Positions 41,956-61,900 of a stretch of DNA of 64,000 nucleotides are shown in pieces; within the stretch, counting starts at the first letter, position 1; each line of letters starts with the position of its first letter. The stretch covers positions 25,756,103 through 25,820,102 of the forward strand of contig CM074519.1 of NCBI GenBank assembly GCA_037379345.1, written 5' to 3'. The position numbers were made by a program, and so were the translations under genes. The notes below the pieces were generated by a model, which worked only from the letters and a program-made list of their open reading frames with translations, was not told the origin of the DNA and did no database searches. This stretch comes from Perna viridis (Eukaryota).

Positions 41956-44607
41956 TCAATCATTTTATATTCCATTTACAAACATAATTAAACAAAAATT
42001 CATTTTCTATAAATGATTTGTTAATGATTCGTGTATTTGTAAATATTACAATATTTGTAAGCGGTACATATTTTACTCACATTGGTATTGACCTAAGATC
42101 GTTGTTTATCAACTCCGTTTCAGGATTTTTTACGCAAGGACAAACATTGGAACGAATAGGCGCAAAACGTAATGAAATACATGTTATTACATAGGATGGC
42201 AAGTTTATATAAGCATTTTTTTTAGCAAAAAGTTGTTAATAAAAATATTTATTGAAATGCGTTTTTTTGTGTGTCAAAATCGCTATCATCCGCTCAGATC
42301 AGTCGTATACTTGTTCTACACTCCAAAATTGTACATACAGGTTATACTGGTACTTGTGCACATAAACACATAGACACATGTATGAAAACATTCATTAGTG
42401 TTATGTATAATACAGGTATATTCGCGTCATTCACAACCTTCTTTTGGTCATACTTTGCGTCCGTCCAAGCACAACCTTTTATGTGGATTGTAACTGTTTC
42501 TAAATTAGAAACAAAGGTATGTTTTGTGAGTTTCTGACATGCACCAATTATCTCCTGCTTGATTAAAAAAAAATATTTATTATTGGAAAATATGAACCTT
42601 GAAAAGTTCCAAATACAGTCATAATGATCCAATTTTATTTTGTGTATTCATATCAAGTTACAAGTTATATCAACATAAATGTTTCTTGGATATAACAACT
42701 CTACAGAGCGGTAAATAATGAAAAAGACGTGAAAATGTATATATATTTCATCACAATTAAAAATAAATTGTACAATATTACTAACGTCTTCATACTCTTG
42801 AAATGCTTATGTTATAATCTGACTTGTCTTACATGTCAGAAATACACTTGATTGATTGATTTATTGATTGATTACCTTTATTTCCTCCATAGTGGAAGAT
42901 TAGATATTTCAGAAACAAAATTAGCTTTAATACAGACAAAGCTATGTAAACATTATATACACAATTTAAATTGCCATTACAGACATCAAATTAATAAAAT
43001 ACATTTTATGCAGTTGATTTGATATGATGATATATATCATCTAAGTAAGTGGTGAAACAGATCATACGAAAAAGTCGAGTACATTTTTGTGACATATTCT
43101 GCTAAATGCCACATGAGGCGATCCCATTTATTGGACGATAATGCTTTCATGGCAGTCATGACTCCACCCAATATTGACATGACCAGGTCACCATCATGCT
43201 GATAAAAAATATTACGGATTCGTGGACAAGAAGCATATCAACAATCTTATAAAAATCTCTGATCGAACATTTAGAAGTTGTTCGCAAATAAGTACATGTC
43301 TAACAAATGTGTTGAAAAAGATTTGCATATAGAACACATGCCTTGTCTGATTGGAGTCGAACCTACTTTGACAACTGTCATTAATTTCGTGTTCATAAGT
43401 GGTAAGGAAACGGCAAGTATTAGAAGCCTACGTTCAGTCAAATTGGTATGAATACGAGCGTATCGCTGCAAATCAGGTCGTTTTTCAACGCTATGCTTCC
43501 ACTTGTTTTCTGCATAAATATCTGTCGATTGGATGACTATTTTTCTCAAAAGTGGTTTTGGTGGGAAAAAATTGTCTTTTACATAGTTTACGAAAAACAA
43601 AAGCAAGTCGTATTTGCGCAACAGTTCAACAAGGTCATATGTTACTGACGATTTGCTACAGTCTTCAGTCAGCACTTGTGCAACACGTAAATTAAATAAC
43701 TGCTTGAAAACTATCCACTATTAGCACGACAGTCTTCCAAAAAGCAAAAATTTCATCTTGTCAACAAAACCTTCTATAGATTATAGGCCTACGTTTGCAT
43801 TACATGATTCAACAGGACTCCTTTCTGAAAAATTGTAGAATAAATCTTGTTAAGTACCTCTGTGTTACAGCTTGTTAGAGCACTCATTCCTCGAGGATTA
43901 AGTCCGATTTTGTAAAAAAGCATGGAGTTTCTGTTTTTCTAAAACCACCAGTAGATAAGATGTAACATGCATGACACCCTTCATATTCCAGCATAAACAT
44001 AACATAAGAAATAACAATAAATGTAAAATACAAAAATGGTTTATTACCATAATGGTTCTGAATTTGTATTGTTATTTCTACTATAGTTAGTGTTGTATGG
44101 CACGTACTCACGCCAGTAAACTCCATTGGGCCAAAATGAGTAATCATTGTTTACCTTGTCAAAATCATTTTCCGCTATGTTCACTCTCATTGTGTACGTT
44201 GCAGTCCCACGAATCTCTCTTTTCTTGAACATTTTTGTATATGTCGCGTTGAGACCCCTTTTGTTAGCAAACGATTTCATTGCAGCGCTTACAAGATCAC
44301 ACGGTTTGTCACCTCTTACACTGTACAGAACGATGCATATTGTCCTTTTTCGAACGAAGCCCCTTAACTGTGAAGCGTTCTCTTCATTATCGTGGTTTTG
44401 TGTCGGATAATCACAATTTGAAGACGTTGTGATGTGAATAAAATTTCCAATGGTTTGGTACTTTGGGAAATCGCTTGTTTTAAACTATTCATTTTGGTCA
44501 ATTATGTGTGTTTGTTTGTAATTTTTTATGTGTTTATCGTTGTCTCCTTCGAGGACTTCTTTCCCTGAATGACTGTTGCGTTTGCTTGTACCAGTGTCTT
44601 TATATAT

Positions 44608-44858
44608 AGAGTATATAGCGTAGAATCGCGTATTAAGATTTTATTCGCGCAATCACTCTATTTGCACAAACGTGTTGCGCTCTACTCACGACGATACAAG
44701 GAGGTGACGATTCTTTATCTTTTACGATATCACTATATTTTCTGTTTCGCCCTTGAATAAGTTCTTTACACTTGCCGTCGATTGAGTTGAGACGGGTGTA
44801 AATTTTAGACAAGTTTTCCTTCTGAGAAGAACTAGCACTATGCTTTTTGAAATACTCT
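44608..44858. mobile_element. Short dispersed element nested in LINE ORF1 (second copy begins near 47905)
   Basis: 44608-44712 is near-identical to 47905-48008; short inverted termini agagtat / atactct. Confidence 0.55.
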
Positions 44859-45153
44859 GGCGTAATTATGTTGCCTTATTTGCCCCTTCGAGAAACTGGA
44901 AGATAACGTAAATGTCATCCGCTAGTTTTTTGTCACCGAGTGATAATCCACTTTCACGACTAGCTCTTTCGACCAGCTTAGTATTTTCATAAGACGTATG
45001 TCTTGTTCGCACAAGATCAAAAAGTGATTTTCGGATTGGACGCATGTCATGTACATCGTAAGTTTTAACAAGTTCATGTTTGAATGTTTTTCTGTCGAGA
45101 TGACCAAAGTTAGATTGAAGCAAATGATATATATCATTATCATTAAATTGGCT

Positions 45154-45635
45154 ATCAGATATGTCGCAACTGTCATTCATAGTGCTTTGTGAGTTTTGTG
45201 TATTGGCATTAGTTACTACTTCGTTTGAATTGTTATACATACATTCATTGTCAGGATTTACCGTTAGAAAAGTATCACTCATTATGCTGCTACATTGTAC
45301 TTGACATCCACTCACAACTCATAACAATGACGGAATTCACAAATGTCTCGGTGATAAGCATCTGTATTGAACTCAAAAATCGAACGAAGAAGGATTTTGA
45401 TCAGATATGTCGCAACTGTCGTTCATAGTGCTTTGTGAGTTTTGTGTATTGGCATTAGTTACTACTTCGTTTGAATTGTTATACATACATTCATTGTCAG
45501 GATTAACCGTTTGAGAAGTATCACTCATTATACTGCTACAGTGTACTCACAACTCATAACAATGACGGAATTCACAAATGTCTCGGTGATAAGCATCTGT
45601 ATTGAACTCAAAAATCGAACGAAGAAGGATTTTGA
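45154..45635. repeat. Tandem duplication (about 246-bp unit) in the LINE 5' region
   Basis: atcagatatgtcgcaactgtc...gaagaaggattttga occurs twice head-to-tail; the second copy has a short deletion. Confidence 0.9.
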
Positions 45636-50656: not shown

Positions 50657-50775
50657 GAAGAATAATCAAGGGAACCAAGGTTATAGCGGTAATCAAAAGA
50701 ATACAATCCAGGGACAAAGACCAGACATGGAAAACAGACATACACAACAAATAACATAAAGTAACTAAAATCCAA
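50657..50775 (-). mobile_element. Penelope-like terminal segment (inverted copy)
   Basis: Reverse complement of about 38835-38935. Confidence 0.8.
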
Positions 50776-52073
50776 ACGCTAAAAACTCCCTCAAAAAGTT
50801 GACTAAACCGTTGAATAGGCCAACTCGTAAGGGATATTGTTATGATATTGTTGTCATATCGTTAAAGATAGCATTTTTAGGGTATCAACGTTTACATAGA
50901 AACAAACACACTATATTCAAAAGTAGTTTTCAGCATGACACGAGTTGTGGCCTTATTCTATGAGTTACATGTATAATGTACCATAGTTCTCAACCCCACA
51001 TGATAAGAGTTGGAATTGATATTACATACAATGAGGATATAACTTTTTTGTATGTTTACATTGGTCTGGAACTGGTATGTCAGTTTACTGCTAGTAGTCC
51101 CGGTGTTTTTTTTGTTTTGGTTTTAACAATGGACTCACATCTTTTTGAACTATTTGCGGGTGCGGTTAATTGTGTTATTTTTTTTCCACAGTAGCCAGAT
51201 TTAAAAAAAATGGAAGGGTTGTGACCACCCCAAAGTAATATTACCTCCGCCGCATTTTTGCGCCTGTCCTGAGTCTGGAATTTCTGGCCTCTGTGTCGCT
51301 TATTGTGTTTTCACTTCCAATTTACTTTTATTTGCTAGAGTACATTGTATATGGGGAACTGTTTCGATGTTTTCGTGTATAATTTGTTTTTGGGCGAACC
51401 GCAACCTGCCCTATGGGTTGAGGGTGTCCTTGTCGTTCATTGAAGACCCATGGGTGGCCTTGAGCTGACATGTTTCATACCGGTGGGGCTGTTGTCTCCA
51501 TATCCATTCTCGTTATATAGTCCATGGACCGCATACACCCTAGGAACCCCTCCCCCTTGAAAACATTTGAAGTATACATTTTTCAACTTCTCTATTATCG
51601 ATAGAATCAAAATTGACCAATTTTCAACACCTATGTTTTGAAAATCGATGTTTTAGCAGAGAGTCATTCACATTTAGTTGGGGTTCGGGGACCACCTGCC
51701 CCAAGCAATAAAGCAAATTTTGTTAAGTTATTAAATGGCAGACAAATATCCATGTGTACTTTGAATGGCCCGGGGTAGATTTTTCATGCACACTTAAAGG
51801 GAAATGTGGGATTCTGGTGAGGCATCATATCAAAGTCCCATTACTTCTGCAAGTGGGGTCAGAGTTTCCCTTTGTGGCCCATAGCCTATTCGTATAAATG
51901 TATACATTTCGATCTCTTTTTAAAAACATGACAGACGAGCAAAGACACTGTTCACTATTATATAACTTCACTTTTAAAGGCTGGATTGGAACAAATGAAG
52001 ATAAGGAAAAACAAATACGAAAATATTATATATTTAATACAAGTACATGTACAAACAACTTCTCCAGTAAAGA

Positions 52074-52351
52074 TCATTCGTATTCGCCCAGATCAAATTC
52101 TTCCACTATTTCGGCTACTGTTCGCAATTCCTCGTCAATTAAAGCCTTGACAAGTAAACTCTTCGTTGCATTTTGTCCATTTATTTCTCTCCACTTCACC
52201 AACATTGAATATGACTTTTGTTCAATTTGTTGATTATTTTGATCAATTATATTAATGTTACTGTTTGAAATATTTAGATAACGACCCACATTTTTCCATT
52301 GGGGTGTTATTTCCTTTGCTATCCGTAAAAAGAGTCTGTTCCAGTTAGAAT
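52074..52351 (-). CDS. Terminal exon encoding the death domain
   Basis: Acceptor tgtctgcttcag, phase 1; LFLRIAKEITPQWKNVGRYLNIS..I..ID..N..IEQKSYSMLVKWRE..G..AT...LVKAL....L...AE matches the FADD/RIP-type death-domain consensus. Confidence 0.92.
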
Positions 52352-55300
52352 CTGAAGCAGACAATACATGTAAACATCTATTAACAAACTACATGTACCT
52401 AAAAATTGCAAGGAATTTAAACAGAGTATGTGGTTGTAAAATATATTATGCAATAAGGTTAATGGAAATAGTCTGAAACAATCATAAAAAATCTAATTGT
52501 AAACATGTTTTTATTTTCATGTGCAAGACTATACTTGGTATATATACGAACATTAATTTCCAAAAATAGTTAGGTTTTTTACACCCTAGGACAATCATTG
52601 GCGTATGTGTGAAAATGTGCTATATTTATACCATAGGCACCGACCAATGAAAGGAAATGGAGGATTAAGCTAAGGAAAATATGTTTATCCTCACATATTC
52701 TGTTGTTAGTTTTAACTTTAGGGTTTATGGTACTTATACAATGTTTGTAAATCATTGCTGCTCCTTTGAATTTCATCAACACATTTTGTTCCTGTCCATA
52801 TTTCATCGCAGTACCCACTCTTTAAATAGTTGGTATATTAAAGCTGTCTGGTTGCCCTTTAAATTTGTTTTTTTTTCGTTTTTGTTTCGTTTTGCTACTC
52901 TCACCTTGTTATATCTCATTTAGCAATGTTTTCGAGAATTAAAGTGTAATGTAACATAATTAGACTTATACCAATACGAAAATCAAGAAGTACATTTGCA
53001 TTGTTTTTACATATACTGTGTTAAAACACTCCAGCTAAGAATCATGCAAAATGTGATTCACGGCTGAAAAACCTACATATTTTTATTTTTTGATATTTTG
53101 TTTGAATTGCCATAGTAAACAGAAATTAGCATTTGGTTTTTCATATAAATTTTGTTCTTAGGAGATAAAAAATATACAGAATGCACTGTAGATTTCAAAA
53201 TTAAAGGAGGTACATGTATCTCTGTAAATGACACTCAAATACAATAGAATCCATTGGATCTTCGATCACCTATGTTGATTATCTCCTAAGAGTAGATAGA
53301 TTGGAATGAATAATTACACATTTCATAATATAGACCCATAAAACAACTTAATTACAAAAATAAAAATATGTAGCCTTTTTGGTGTGTATCACATTTTTGA
53401 GATTTTGCATGATTCTTACAAAGACAGCTACTTAAAAAAATACGAAGGTCATTCAAAGTTAATTCCTTGGTTCTCAGACCATAATTCACGAAAATCAGCG
53501 AGATAAGGAGGCACGTCTCTCTCCCTTTTTATTGCCCCAAAAAGGCAATTATCCTTTTTGAACATTCAATCACAGCAAAACCTGCAAATTATAGGTCAAA
53601 AATGGTCTATTTATAGGCCATAAAAATGGACAATAGTGTACCTTCATAAGGAACGAAAACAGGCTGAAAACTAAAAAATCACTTTAGTTGACCTTCCATG
53701 TACATGTATTTACCTTGAGTTTGCTCACTCCCATCTGAGATTCTTCCAGGGCTAGTACAAAATATAGTGTGCAAATCTGGAATATTGCCATGTCCCCATA
53801 GGGTTACTTTATATCCAGAGGAAGGTTGATTCGCTGATGTAAGCATATTGTCTGCAATCCTCAATTCCGTACCTGGAGGTGGGGTTACTACGTAATAAGG
53901 CATTTGTTTAGATTCTCTAGTATTGATATCAAGCAAGGGAAGGTTAGGTCTTCCGTGATGAGGCTGAGTCGTTGAGATTGGGACTATACTGTCCATCATA
54001 TCTTGTGGATAGTGTGTATAAAGTCGGCTGTCAGAAGGCGACGGCTTTGGACCATTTGTGTTTGGCATAGACAAAAGATCGGAATCAGACTTGTATCCAC
54101 TGTCTATAGGTTCGTTAACTACCAGTGAGTTCCGAGAAGATTTATTTGGTACAGAAGCCTAAATAAATGATTGAGTTATCAGACTTGAACAATTATGACG
54201 TGTAAATTAAAAGTCAGATAAAACATGTCCATGACTTGGTGAGAACAGCACACACACACACACACAATTTAACGTGCCAGTCTGGTTAAATACATGCATA
54301 TTCAAGCGTTTTCGTCATGAATAGCATTGAACGTTAATCTACAATCCAAGAACTTTTTCTATAAGTAATCAATTGGAAATATCTGTAATATATACATGCA
54401 TATATTACAAGTATTCCCGAGGACCTATGAAATGAATTATTTAGAAAGTATTAAATACAAAAAAATCATTGTATAATTTTCAAGAGTTGATAAAGTACAT
54501 GTACATAGTATGATATGCCCAAACACATGTATAGATTGACATTGAGGTTACTAACCATTCTATGGAATCCAGATCCAGACTTTCTTTCCAAGTCAATATT
54601 CAAAATCGTAACAGTTGATCGACTTCTTTTATCTTTCATTCGAAGTCGTTTTAACTGGAGTTGTAACGCAGCCACTGATGGTGTTCCTCCTAAAATAAAA
54701 GAAGAAAACATATAGAGTCATGTACACGGATTACTAACATTTTTATTGGTTAGAATACCTCGTTTAATCAAATTTAAAAAGCTTCTGAAATTTAAGTACC
54801 TAAAATTAATTTCTTTCAAGATCAGCGATCGTTCTAAGATGATACATGAACCTATAGCTGTGGACAGCGGTAAACGTTTGTGTCTTTTCCATAGCCACAT
54901 CAGACGTATACATCTAAACTATTATATCTTTGTTATCTTTGTTTTAAACTTTTTCAGAGAATGGCAATAAAGTTATTTGTATACGGCCAGTTTTTTTATG
55001 GGTAGGTAGGGTAAGGTTACTAAGGGGAGACAAATCTAATTTTAATATTGGCATGAGAGGAAGGGGACCCACTTATTATTTTCAATTTTTACTATATGAT
55101 CAACCAACCTCTTCAGGCAGGAGAGAGGGGGTACGCCTATGGATAGTAATTAAAATAAATAACGTGTTCTTTGCTACAACATGTACCTTTTTCTATAGTC
55201 CCGTCAGTATTTGCTTGGAATATAGCATACTGATTGAAATGTTCATCCTCTTCATATGGCTTAGGACAGTGGCACATGCAAACTATTGACCTGTCGGTGA

Positions 55301-57787
55301 CTGACGAGTTTATGTAAGATTCACTCCTTTCTAAACAATGTCCACCATGAATAAGGTACAATTCGTCATCTTTAATTTGGAGTATTTCAGATACAATTTT
55401 GATAACCTCTTCTATATTTTCTTCCGGATCATCAACTTTGATGTGAAGGAATTTTCCTCGGAATATCAATTTACTTCTGTTTGCAACCCCTTTATGAACA
55501 TATAGGCGAAACACTAATCGGTTTTGATTGTAAGAGAGTTCAAAGGAAGCTTTTCTGTCAGTAAATTCTTCAAGCAAGACGTACTCTTCTAGAATAGTTC
55601 CCTTGTACATCAAATCGAACTCTTTTGTTGAAATTTCATATTTAGTTGAAATTTCATTTTTTAATTCTTCTATTGAACAAGTTGGATACTCTTCTATTAT
55701 TGCATTATTTAACCTCTCTATATCACTACTAAGAACGATGGTAACTTTACTGATTCTTCTTACCGTGAAAACAGAGGTTGGATTAAACTGGAATGTAGAT
55801 ATAAGTTGTAAGTTTTCTACTTCTTCGATTTTATTTATGCCATTAGGTGGGAATATCTCAAACGATTGTGGTTTCCAGTGACAGTGTTTTGCAATTTCCT
55901 GTCTGAATTCATTTGTTGAACTGTCATTACGAATAAATACTGTGAAAGGATGCATGTGACCTCTATCATCACCCAGTATGCGCACATGGAGCATCCAAAA
56001 CGTGAAGACTCTTGGTGTTAAGTGTACAAGGAACGCAGGATATGAATGGAATATATTATTGTCTGAAATTAGTTTCCTTTCATTCACCAATAAAGAAATG
56101 ATTGCTTTGTAGTTCTGATCTATCCTTTTGCCATAGTCATCAGTCAATGACAAATCATATATTTCTAAGTCAGACAATTCTGTTATATTTTTCTTTGCCA
56201 ATCTATGATAATTCCAAAGAACTTGACTGAAAGTATCGGTTGACTGATATTCTACGTGATATGTGACTGAGGTTTCGTATGACTGATGATATATGAATTT
56301 AAGTATGTTTGTCTTATATTTGACGACATTGAGGTAGTAAGCGGGAGAGGTAGTAATGTTATAAAAGTTAACTTTCTCTGTTGTTTCACCATCTTCAAAT
56401 TGATGGCAGAGATGGATGAGTTCGCTTGAAAGTTGTCGCTTCATGAATGCAATGTTATCGATGTGAACAGGCTTCGGAAAAATTCTACAATAAAATGGCA
56501 CTTGATTATCTGAGATCGTTGTATTCTGACATACCGGAGACGGAGTATTGGAAAACTCTTTCGAGATGAAAAATGTGACAATGTCGGTCTTCTTATGCGT
56601 CGGCGGTAGCGAAATCACTACGGAATGGATATCTGTGAGAAAACATTCATGAGCAGTCCCAAAAACGTTCAGGAATTGTTCGTGGCTAACGACATTACAA
56701 TACGATTTCAATGACAAAATGAGGTCTCTTTGCACAAGCTCGTGACTTCTATTTCCAGTTCTACGTTTAACTATCTTCCCTGGTGTTATTGAATCGCTTA
56801 TAGTGTCGCAATCAAATACTAAGAATTCGAGAAGCTGTGTGGAATTTGATGAATATGATCCTTCTCTGTAACTAAACTCCTCTGATGTAATTGATTCTGT
56901 TAGGAATAAGAAATAGTATGGTTATAGAATTAAATACTTTTTTCGAGAATTTTTCAATGTGTACAACCGGATCATTAACTAACAAAACAAATAAATGGTC
57001 CGATCTAAAAAAAAAAAAAAAAAAAAAAAAAATGCGATGCTCTCGGATTTTTGAGAGTTGATATTGCTAGTGCTTAAGTTTCATGGGAGACGTCTTCTTT
57101 TCCATATCTTCAGTTTGTTTTGTGTAATAAGTTTCATTCTGCTTGCTACATAGTGATTATTTCCTATATAATTAAATTTGATTTAAAGATTTTAAACGCT
57201 GTACATATACAATGTACTTATCATCCATTTGAATTTTATGAGAAGGGAGGCTTTGGTCGAATTTTCTGTTATACCTTTTTTTATTTTGAGAAAGTTTAGG
57301 CCCGCCTTTTTTCGAATACAAATGTTTTTCAATAAAGTCAATTCAGATTGGCAATGTGGATACTTATGAATACAAATTGATATCATAAACAGTTCAATGA
57401 AAACTGTATTTATACATGTGTGTATATATATATAATACAAACGTCTCAGAATGTGACGACTCTATTCGCTACACTGCTCCATCGGATCAAATTGATACAG
57501 GGAAGATAACGTAAACTTATAGAAGGGTCTGAGAAATTCCCAACGATGTTAGAACTGTCACATTTGCGATGCAAATTTTTGGTCGTTCCCTCCGCGGGAC
57601 TCGAACTCGTACCGCTGTGACATCTATGGCAACACCGCCTGCGTAGTCCTAGACCACTCGACCAGATAGGCTATATAAAAATAACGCTTTCGCATAGACT
57701 TCTAATGAATTACCCAATTCCATAAAATTTCATAGTACATTGTGTTTATACAAAAATGTACACACCAATATCTGCATCAGATGCCAT
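52074..57787 (-). CDS. Tandem ubiquitin-like repeat + C-terminal death domain protein, 862 aa, 5 coding exons
   Basis: Exons 57787-57766 (MASDADI), 56896-55187, 54689-54556, 54158-53714 and 52351-52074. GT-AG introns, phases 1/1/0/1 consistent, 2589 nt. ATG in acaATGg context with an in-frame TGA 9 nt upstream. The last exon has the canonical death-domain pattern. Confidence 0.82.
53021..53435. mobile_element. TTAA-flanked MITE in the last intron of the death-domain gene
   Basis: Perfect 16-bp inverted repeat taagaatcatgcaaaa (53036-53051) / ttttgcatgattctta (53403-53418), with TTAA at both ends. Confidence 0.7.
53714..54158 (-). CDS. Death-domain gene exon 4 (S/P/T-rich linker with DSGYKS)
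   Basis: tttatttag acceptor, gtaaat donor, phase 0-1, open frame of 445 nt. Confidence 0.82.
54556..54689 (-). CDS. Death-domain gene exon 3 (GGTPSVAALQLQLKRLRMKDKRSR...HRM)
   Basis: Strong polypyrimidine acceptor, gttagt donor, phase 1-0. Confidence 0.8.
55187..56896 (-). CDS. Death-domain gene exon 2 (1710 nt; tandem ubiquitin-like domains)
   Basis: Acceptor tttcttattcctaacag; the frame stays open upstream of the listed 532-aa ORF; donor aag|gtacat. Confidence 0.9.
57420..57672 (-). mobile_element. tRNA-derived SINE in intron 1 of the death-domain gene
   Basis: Minus strand has A box tggtcgagtggt and B box gagttcgagtccc, a non-tRNA body and a (TA)n/(CA)n tail; related copy at 21386. Confidence 0.75.
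57766..57787 (-). CDS. Death-domain gene first coding segment (exon 57823-57766)
   Basis: ttcttatag acceptor, ATG GCA TCT GAT GCA GAT ATT G|gtgtgt; phase 1 matches the next exon. Confidence 0.65.
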
Positions 57788-58640
57788 TGTTGTGGTTCAG
57801 TGTCTATGTTCTTCGGTGTAAGACTATAAGAATAACTGCTCTATTTTTTGTCAAGTTGGTCTAAAATAAGACACGATAAAATCAAAAGAATAGATGAAAG
57901 AAATAAATTCTTAATATTTAAGGAATAGACCTGGGGTAAGGGACACAACTCTTACAAATCATTGCCTGGAACGTTTGTATTCAGCATTTGACATCAATCA
58001 AAGTAACTTGGACTGATTTCATTCTGTTTCAAACAAAAGCTTGATATGCTTTAGTGAAATTGAATGCGATACAAACACATCACTTATTTCAAGAGTAATG
58101 TCCCTTACCCTAGGTCGACCTCCTTAATACTGTATGTAGTTTCTTGTAACGAAAAATAAACTAAAGGATATAAAAATATCTAGGCAAATAAAATGTAAAT
58201 TTAATCTACACTGCGTACATGTATATTTTTATCGGTCATCGGGCAAAAGTTAAATACCTTTACTATTTTAATCTCGACTTCAACATAACTAAAATCATAT
58301 ATAATCACCAGATAGTCATGTTTAATGAACCAATTCAGATATTTAACCTCCATACTCCTAAACAACGTTGCATCGTCGTAGTGACATCGTAAAATAGGTT
58401 TTGACCAATGAGGTACGTCATGAGTAACAGCAATACCATAATGCAATAGTTTCTGAATCGGTCCATTACACAAAGTTTAAGTGAAAGTGTGTGTACGAAT
58501 CAAGTGTTTGCAAGAATCAGACCGATCTGACAATGTAATATCACTCAAGGATACTTTCTCAATTTGAAAAGACCACTATTTGATCCCTGCATCACTGGCA
58601 TTACTCAGAAAATTTTCGATAGAATGTTCGAAAACCTTAC

Positions 58641-58999
58641 CTTGAAATCTTCATTTTCATTGCATTTTAATGATATCATATCAATTAGCCAAAATAATAT
58701 GGAAAATTTTGTCTTTTTTTCTTGATTCTGATGGTGCAAATAGTCAAATTACACTATCAAAATGATGAATTTTAAGTCAATTCCAAGAGTTGATCAATCT
58801 AGTCACGCAAGATTCTCGTATATTCTTAATATCATTTGAATCATTTTTGTTGTCCGACTGTCAGAAGTACACAGAATACCGTCATGACGACCTCGTCCTC
58901 CAAAGTTCGGTCATTGTTGCCCTGATGATTCTAAAATACTTAAAAGTTGGAAACGCTACCTCAAATACTAATTTATCTCTTTTGTGGTATGGAACCGTG
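58641..58999 (-). other. Probable 5'-UTR exon of the death-domain gene (a further donor lies at 60056)
   Basis: tatttttacag acceptor and caag|gtaagg donor; upstream gaa|gtaagt donor near 60056 and TATAAA near 60195 on the minus strand. Confidence 0.4.
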
Positions 59000-61900
59000 C
59001 TGTAAAAATAACTGACACTTGATTTAGTTCATACATGTACATGCATGTCACAAGTGTCTATGGACGACGTCGGAGTGCTTTTTTGCCGTATTATGGAGAA
59101 TACGTGTCGATATCGAGTCCTCAAAAAAGGTTGAGTTGAAAAGGAAGTTGAAAAGTTAGCGGATAGATTGTTATAGAAGTAAAATCATACATGTAAGTAT
59201 TGATTTAAATGAAGTTGGTCGGAAATGTGTTAAAACCACTTTGGAAGGCCTTATTTGACATCATGGCACACTTTTAACCTAAAAAAAAAACCCTTTGTAT
59301 CATTAACACATAGATAAGAAAGGGGGATGACGTCGAATGACAAATTTGAATCTTGACCTTACACGACCTAGAATCGGAGGTACATATACGACATATACAT
59401 GTAGCGATATGTACATGTTAACTAATTACTAATCAGTTAATTTGTTAATTAATCATTTTCCATGCTAAGAATTCAAAATTGAAAGTTGGTGTTATGTGTG
59501 TCAAGGGCGTATCCAGAAAGTGATAACGAAAATCTGGATGATATCGATTAAGATATAGTAAAAAGGGGGTTCCAAACTATCTTTTGGTCATTTTGCAAAC
59601 GTTTTGCACAAAATTAACAATTTCCCCCTTTTAATATCACTAGAGCCCCCCCCCCCCTTCCCGGCCACCACTGTATCTCGTTTATCAAAATAAAAGGAAC
59701 ACTTTAATTCGCATTTTTCACTAATATTGAAAAAAACGAAAAAAAATGAAAAGAAAAAAAAAGATTCTTCTTGAGTCACAAGCGATGCGTTACGGATTTA
59801 ACGTTTCACTGGATCCACACGCACACATCTGTCGTCAGTTTATTTAAAAAGAGCTTTGAACTTTGATCGATGAGTCAGTAATTCAAATTTAAAAAAAACT
59901 ACATACAATACATGATAAAGTTATAATATCAGTATTGTTCAGTTCACAAGTATTTAGATTATTGAATACATGTATAGAAACTATTACATATGTAATCTAC
60001 AATACACTGTTATCACATTTTGTAAACAATAATTAAAAGATAACTATCTTACTTACTTCCTTGTTACATCACACTCGTCACGCTGTTTGTTTTACAAATC
60101 TTATACTAATTTTAGAGTCAAAGACGGGACTTATTTAAACGGGAAACAACATTTTTATTTAAAAATTGAGTTATTACATGCAAGTAGCAGTCTTTATAAA
60201 CATCAGACGGGGTGTGATTAACGCATGTCAAAACCCCACAAATTTAACTTTTATTTCTTATTCAGAAGCACATATATACAACATACAGTAACCACTCTTA
60301 GATGTTGCACTTTTGAGACAAAACATGAATAGATTTTGTGCATGAAATTGGCACTTTGCAAGAGGTATTGTTCTTGGTTTGGACATGAGTGTATTTTTTA
60401 ATGCAGATCAAAATACAGAAAGGACTATAATTACGTAAAAATGTATAGCAAATATATATATACAGAAAACGCATCGTTTGTTTTGTGGGTTTCTCTACAA
60501 CATGAATTTCCCCTACTTTTTATATGAACTGGTACTTAACATAATGTCTTTTTAGCATACATTTTCACTTAAGAATCATAAGTGTTAAAACTTCCTGTCT
60601 GTCCCTTCAGCATTCATTTGATGTCGGATTAAAGAAATGTTCCGCATAAGCGCAAACTTTTTATCATAATTCAGCGGTTTTTTATTGAAATCAATATTTT
60701 TATTTATTAATGTGTCTTGTTAGGTGATGGAAAAATGGAAGAGTGATTTTTTTCTCTCCACTATTTAAAACATTTATTTTTTTTTCTCAAAAATATCCAA
60801 GCCCCCCTTTTCCCCTCGCTAATAAAATGGTCAGTGCCAAAGAGTTTATCAGAGCCGAGGTTGGGAAGGTAATGTAACTATTCATATTAAATATAAATAT
60901 TGCATTCTATTGGAAAATATTTCTCGCCATTACTGTTCACTGCACAGATAACAACTGTAGTCAAACATTTTTTTCTAAATTTTCCCAACTATCTTTATTA
61001 CTTTCTTGCATTGTTCTCAAGTTACTAATGTGATACAATGTATACTGAATGCACTTAACCTTTTAGAATGTTTAAACAGCAGTATTAGATCTCTCCCTGC
61101 ACAATTCTCAGATGAACCGTATAGATGTAGTATTTAGCTAGGAACTTTGATATATATTGGCCGAGACGGTATCCCCGTATATTCAGGTATTTCTTCATGG
61201 TATGTATCATAAAAAACAAAAAGGGTTTTGGCCCGACATGTCAGTGCTGCTCCTTCGATCCGAGAGAAAAAATATATAATGTTTAATGTCAAACGAATGA
61301 CTGATAGATCAAGACTTAGTGTCAAATGGTTTGCCTTAAGTACTTCACCATTTTTCTATGTTTGCCTTCTCCATGAATATAGCCGGGATAATTGAGAGGA
61401 TGGACATCCATATAAGGGAGTTGAGAGAAAAACAGAAGTAGTAAAATATATCAAACTAACGTAACGTCCGATCAAAATATGTTCAAATGTGTTGTTTTCA
61501 GAAGAATTATTTGTCAGTGTGGGAAGATACATATCCTAGTGTCTAGTCAATTTGATATCTCAAACCACTGCTAAGGAACGCTGTGGAAGGACGGACTGAC
61601 AACATTTTTATGTTCATTTGGCTTTGCGAAGACTACAAAACGAAGATAATCTTTTGTTTTCAACTTCAAGTTTCAAGTTTCAAGTTATATTAATACTCTC
61701 TGACAGAAATTACACTGTAACAAAAGGCTTATATAGAAGAACAATTTTACATAACTACAACGAATATTGCTTTATGAAAATTATCACAATCATTCTGGAT
61801 AGCATAGCTTATGGCCATAAACCAACAGGGTGTTGCACAATAAATCAGGAAGTAATTATAAGTAATCAGAGGTGAAAATATCATCCTAGTTTCTTTTCTT

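Follow-up and report, generated by a model that had tools for sequence, protein, structure and literature searches.

A Perna viridis gene joins a cassette of strongly diverged ubiquitin-like domains to a C-terminal Death domain

Tandem ubiquitin-like domains (UBLs) and Death-domain adaptors are each already known kinds of protein. USP7 contains five UBLs that share less than 15% identity and bind their partners at unit-specific sites, as described in passages of PMC4457826. Death domains build complexes via homotypic binding (passages of PMC8998645), and ubiquitin domains fused to lineage-specific immune adaptors are found in marine invertebrates (passages of PMC8195603). Here we describe a gene of Perna viridis in which a UBL cassette and a Death domain are combined. 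It lies on the minus strand of a stretch of 64,000 nucleotides (the window; assembly GCA_037379345.1, contig CM074519.1, positions 25,756,103 to 25,820,102), whose own numbering is used below. One exon carries five, probably six, strongly diverged ubiquitin-like domains (U1–U6) without cleavage sites, and the last exon encodes the Death domain. This pairing is not mentioned in the passages of PMC9334734 on "death domain", and literature searches by architecture and accession, with most subscription journals and supplements (e.g. the architecture tables of PMC8195603) outside their scope, returned no description of it.

The open reading frame (ORF) at 55137–56921 has 594 residues from stop to stop and is the sole frame of that size in the window. 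It contains all the ubiquitin-resembling motifs quoted in an original prediction on this DNA. The single intronless exon proposed there is borne out by RNA reads and transcript contigs, in which 56896–55187 is unbroken. The gene has five exons, all on the minus strand. Exon 1 (57766..57860) holds the 5' untranslated region and the first seven codons, with the ATG at 57787, as seen from transcript contigs, spliced reads and translation. Exon 2 (55187..56896; 1710 nt; reads, contigs and translation) encodes the whole UBL array, residues 8–577, and has a phase 1 intron on either side. Exon 3 (54556..54689; reads or contigs and translation) encodes a linker, and exon 4 (53714..54158; reads or contigs and orthologue alignment) a Ser/Pro/Thr-rich linker with two short motifs kept in bivalves. 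Exon 5 (52067..52351; Pfam, PDB sequence matches and spliced reads) encodes the Death domain, residues 774–856, and the stop codon. Each of the four introns has GT-AG borders, and joining the exons gives a frame of 862 residues.

Expression was assessed from the raw reads of two stranded RNA runs, about 19% of each being used. The mean depth over the exons was 4–8, on one strand only. The joints 56896/57766 and 52351/53714 were each spanned by 6 and 4 spliced reads in the two runs, and the joint 54688/55186 by 10 and 0. In one run the five exons were joined in one contig; in the other, one contig comprised the three middle exons and both outer joints. The array exon and the Death exon are united in one spliced transcript. 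A chance ORF or a pseudogene was ruled out by the splicing, the intact frame and the conservation. Two paralogue searches of the genome, one with the array and one with the Death exon, gave no second locus among the nine candidates scored in each, one copy being a lower bound. The eight read-supported variants in exon 2, among those listed, were four synonymous and four non-synonymous, and are uninformative. Thousands of partly matching RNA reads are drawn to interspersed repeats of high copy number that lie within or near the introns (50658–50772, 53027–53435 and 57016–59019).

The Death domain, the main functional clue, was absent from the original prediction. It matches PF00531 with an E value of 1.7e-13 and 51 bits, against a curated cut-off of 22.6. 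Its sequence neighbours in the PDB are THOC1, FADD, TNFR1 and RIPK1 (E 1e-5 to 3e-3). In the otherwise divergent exon 4 linker, a GYKSD motif is kept across full-length bivalve orthologues, as is the motif aromatic-x-x-T/L-hydrophobic-W/F-G just before the Death exon. To judge from their sequences, both are possible phosphorylation or short interaction sites. It should be added that the four distant full-length members P0066, P0072, P0088 and P0119 (4/4) have a short Gly-Tyr-x-Thr end after the Death domain; the window protein has a Tyr near its end, at a similar place.

Five UBL folds had been proposed for the exon, and 4–5 beta-grasp domains were expected from AlphaFold. When 62 is added to the residue numbers given there, the segments (ORF 114–200, 205–302, 309–389, 392–464 and 470–551) coincide with units U2–U6 of the AlphaFold2 (AF2) model. 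The topology fits, with uneven support: strong for U4–U6, moderate for U2–U3 and unproven for U1, the probable sixth unit at 56840–56601, which lies beyond the region of the original prediction. A first AF2 run with seven sequences had a mean predicted local distance difference test (pLDDT) score of 50 and was not used for conclusions. The fold search was limited to U5 and its neighbours; its rows spanned only residues 378–543, so that U1 was outside them.

U4–U6, which the original prediction rightly named as its most convincing repeats, are strongly predicted to have the beta-grasp fold, by both profiles and structural alignment. They superpose on ubiquitin, ISG15 and tetra-ubiquitin. The best 50 structural rows were of ubiquitin/SUMO type, and the UBLs of RAD23, Dsk2, parkin and midnolin were among the tied matches. 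U4 (residues 306–390; 55749..56003) could be aligned by structure with ISG15, OASL and tetra-ubiquitin, starting at model residue 298–300, and had hhalign probabilities of 75–93%. U5 (residues 391–464; 55527..55751) is the nearest to ubiquitin by sequence. U6 (residues 465–552; 55263..55526) has a conserved hydrophobic Ile44/Val70 face and an invariant Gly47. After U6, 12/12 aligned members have a hairpin of two strands (55188–55220, minus strand) in which one Gly is invariant; it might cap the hydrophobic face of U6, at low model confidence.

When the units were scanned singly with Pfam, the ubiquitin cut-off was passed by U5 alone (E 9.5e-7; U6, E 0.04), and U1–U4 gave no UBL match. Family profiles aligned by hhalign to a diverse UBL profile of 178 units gave 98% for U5, 97% for U6, 75% for U4 and 63% for U3, but 0.6% for U2 and 0.1% for U1. 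The best scores of shuffled controls were 9–15, against 26–68 for the real U3–U6. The predicted fold of U2 and U3 is moderately supported. U2 (residues 111–202; 56310..56588) is strongly diverged in bivalves; its match rose to 82% when restricted to the six non-bivalve rows, and P0023 has a Rad60-SLD stretch at 144–204. U3 (residues 203–302; 56013..56312) seems UBL-like with insertions, with partly low AF2 confidence and weak Plexin_RBD matches in 8/20 members. U1 (residues 27–106; 56601..56840) shows the order beta-beta-alpha-beta-helices-beta at pLDDT 69–86, without profile support; from this topology it is probably a diverged beta-grasp. In the ESM Atlas, P0003 30–205 and P0066 125–400 fell to ubiquitin/Rad60-SLD clusters at 0.75–0.86, under the 0.9 mark, and are leads only. 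A viral fold library gave multi-UBL giant-virus and pestivirus-captured ubiquitin entries and nothing closer.

The units had been called head-to-tail repeats, a description that does not hold in the sequence sense. Judged by their sequences, they are not recent repeats either: pairwise z scores among U1–U6 were at most 1.1, and no unit-length DNA repeat was found. Ubiquitin-type profiles give U5 and U6 higher scores than the two units give each other, and no more than about 24% of residues are identical to ubiquitin. U3, U4 and U5 of bivalves each match best the same-numbered unit of distant orthologues (95–97.5%), which means that these units have their own identities. As predicted, no unit ends in Gly-Gly (GG): there was no junction GG in 20/20 sequences, and the G47 loop of U6 contains the one GG that the exon product has. 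Counted from the Val70-equivalent residue to the Ile3-equivalent of the following unit, the junction spacings were 7, 13, 7 and 8 residues in 10/10 sequences checked (one with 14), the register of the U3–U4 junction being possibly off by two. In Met1-linked ubiquitin this spacing is 9.

A word search found six relatives with 42–61% identity and ubiquitin and Death annotations, two of them uncharacterised Mytilus proteins. When 1.84 billion representatives were searched with a profile, there were 107 matches, mostly polyubiquitin-like arrays that hit U5 alone; six distant proteins matched over several units. The distant members include Littorina saxatilis XP_070174366, Nucella lapillus KAL8564691 and Gigantopelta aegis XP_041365131, and a Death domain is at the C-terminal end in Littorina, Nucella, P0088 and P0119. 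The array and the Death domain occur together in 11 of the 20 aligned sequences; the remaining nine are the window exon product, seven shorter records, most of which stop soon after the array, and a RefSeq model that has no Death domain. From these alignments, the architecture is conserved across mussels and snails. In U3–U6, identity is 42–59% between the window and the other bivalve-type rows and 17–22% between the groups. A U3–U6 tree of 12 of the 20 rows splits six bivalve-type rows from six others, with long branches that cannot date the array. In two other clusters, the shorter ORF calls cease to agree with the full-length versions directly behind the array, where a Gly fits a GT donor. 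The P0119 cluster has individual ORF calls that correspond to an array exon, a linker exon and a Death exon. From these break points and this cluster, we infer that the single-exon array is conserved in relatives. Alignment-based word searches gave no further family members. No oyster-labelled orthologue appeared in the family searches, although this does not show that oysters lack one. Pfam scans of full-length orthologues found no catalytic domain and no UCH (USP catalytic) match.

Taken together, our analysis suggests that the protein probably serves as an adaptor in signalling. It would be recruited to a Death-domain complex by homotypic binding of its own Death domain, and the uncleavable UBL cassette would present a fixed multi-site platform, on whose position-specific surfaces partners might dock. 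The UBL1-5 cassette of USP7 is a precedent for such a platform: its units are likewise mutually diverged, and Foldseek aligns USP7 C-terminal chains with the model over about 570–630 columns (E 1e-12). The conserved hydrophobic face of U6 is the likeliest candidate docking site. Such a protein would probably act in immune or cell-death signalling. Several observations weigh against this proposal. Death domains are found in non-immune proteins too, and the top PDB match of this one is THOC1. The Gigantopelta model is without the Death domain. U6 of bivalves scores equally against distant U5 and distant U6, and U1 and U2 gave no significant match between the bivalve and distant groups. The AF2 model has a predicted template modelling score of 0.43, so that the packing between domains is not predicted. 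The top Foldseek matches are linear tri- and tetra-ubiquitin, at root-mean-square deviations (RMSDs) of 15–21 Å; this is expected, because any tandem of such folds would give it. Linear tetra-ubiquitin ranks over USP7, and the alignment to USP7 adds up matches of single domains (TM 0.15, RMSD over 20 Å) and does not reflect a shared arrangement.

Alternatively, the cassette, mainly U6, might be a proteasome-targeting handle, as in RAD23, midnolin or FAT10, by which partners bound to the Death domain would be degraded; the protein would then be a negative regulator. U6 is the only unit with an Ile44-like face: the Ile44 position is aliphatic in 11/12 sequences, Gly47 is kept in 12/12 and Val70 is hydrophobic in 12/12. 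The shuttle-type UBLs among the tied structural matches fit this idea as well. However, shuttle proteins usually carry one UBL, at the N terminus, the conserved DG hairpin after U6 might cover its face (low pLDDT), and the conservation of U1–U5 would be left unexplained. This role seems rather improbable.

The original prediction had proposed a non-cleavable mimic of a linear chain. In its full form, a captured polyubiquitin array would act as a built-in, deubiquitinase-resistant Met1-chain mimic that draws UBAN-type readers to Death-domain complexes or sequesters them there. The array lies in one phase 1-1 exon, like the two single-frame polyubiquitin loci of the host (C10:36154152-36155963 and C3:32288837-32290648; eight equally scoring units each, 228-nt period). 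Linear chains head the Foldseek list, the U4–U5 and U5–U6 spacings (7 and 8) are near 9, and the Ile44 position is aliphatic in U5 of 6/6 bivalve rows and in U6 of 11/12 sequences. The host also has three exons of the UBAN (CC2-LZ) family (L003, L004 and L005), NEMO/ABIN-like by appearance. According to passages of PMC4286102, binding by UBAN readers depends on the distal unit through its Ile44 patch and tail, and on the proximal unit through its Phe4 patch. The distal patch is broken in U5, where Asp replaces Arg42 in 10/12 sequences, His68 is found in 0/12 and there is no LRLRGG tail; the Ile44 position is polar or Cys in 6/6 non-bivalve rows. Conservation of the Ile44-equivalent patch, which had been set as a check, is seen in U6 and not in U5. 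Phe4 is present in 1/12 (U5) and 0/12 (U6). Two-unit superpositions on linear di-ubiquitin gave RMSDs of 10–12 Å, although the model packing is uncertain. Furthermore, a mimic would be expected to be held close to the ubiquitin surface, which is not the case at the low identity given above. A complex prediction of U4–U6 with the L004 dimer scored 0.01, without controls and with the alignment unused, and is counted neither way. With a junction spacing unlike that of Met1-linked chains and without these surfaces, the chain mimic is unlikely.

The capture of a diverged polyubiquitin-like array is a separate matter. It is plausible, though well short of an even chance, because the exon is symmetric and single and GG-poor arrays are common: of 85 polyubiquitin-like matches with at least four units, 39 have at most 1/4 of their units ending in GG (e.g. 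P0022, P0034, P0036, P0039, P0053, P0064, P0077 and P0111). At such divergence this origin is not demonstrable, and serial duplication of an integral UBL may have produced the array instead. The whole scenario is likewise unlikely. In it, an ancient polyubiquitin gene would have been taken up as a phase 1-1 exon and joined to a Death domain before the mussel/snail split, and would now give molluscan Death-domain complexes a deubiquitinase-proof scaffold that replaces or competes with enzymatic chains. Least probable, and by our estimate very much so, is that some units are Ras-association or PB1-type beta-grasps that link the Death-domain complex with a small GTPase or a PB1 partner: PB1 matches in 10/20 members and the Plexin_RBD matches would suggest it, but every one is under its curated cut-off, Plexin_RBD also scores on ordinary polyubiquitin-like arrays, and the best structural rows are of another type.

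The locus reveals an unannotated protein family, its named members so far molluscan only, whose 5–6 ubiquitin folds are nearly invisible to Pfam (one called). In bivalves and gastropods it ties a UBL cassette directly to a Death-domain protein. If the adaptor proposal is correct, the protein would be a new candidate part of immune or apoptotic signalling in molluscs, and would offer a natural example of a tandem ubiquitin array turning into an integral cassette. If it were a mimic, it would amount to a hard-wired ubiquitin chain.

Elsewhere in the window, six other ORFs gave no Pfam match. Three open frames of 146–150 residues at 43271–45318 (minus strand), without a Pfam match, look by eye like transposon-ORF fragments. 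A ShK domain-like exon (L006 1036–1428, minus strand; E 6.9e-5) lies about 7 kb upstream of exon 1.

Compared with known systems, the array resembles the USP7 UBL1-5 cassette (PDB 2ylm; passages of PMC4457826) in having several mutually diverged, non-cleaved UBLs in a fixed order within a larger protein. It differs in having a Death domain instead of USP catalytic or MATH domains, and sequence homology is not demonstrated. Polyubiquitin precursors of the UBB/UBC type share the head-to-tail ubiquitin folds in one frame and one coding exon, whereas the present units are 75–100 residues long, pairwise unrelated, without LRGG and fused to a Death domain. In addition, the host has long open frames with one UBL match at C8:2815854, C2:64268810 and C1:15414028. 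ISG15, FAT10 and OASL have two units, with a free C-terminal GG in ISG15 and FAT10; here 5–6 internal units have none, and the protein ends after the Death domain, which is not as in a conjugatable modifier. Degenerate poly-UBL arrays (e.g. P0039, from the coral Oculina patagonica, and P0111, with 12 units and a sub-threshold COR-A match) have 4–12 diverged units, mostly without GG. However, Pfam still recognises them clearly as ubiquitin-like, homology to the U3/U4 signatures is not demonstrated, and 0/10 scanned had a Death domain. Finally, Death-domain adaptors of the FADD, TRADD, RIPK1 and PIDD/UNC5 types likewise have a C-terminal Death domain, a long low-complexity linker and an N-terminal interaction module; in the present protein, that module is a UBL cassette.

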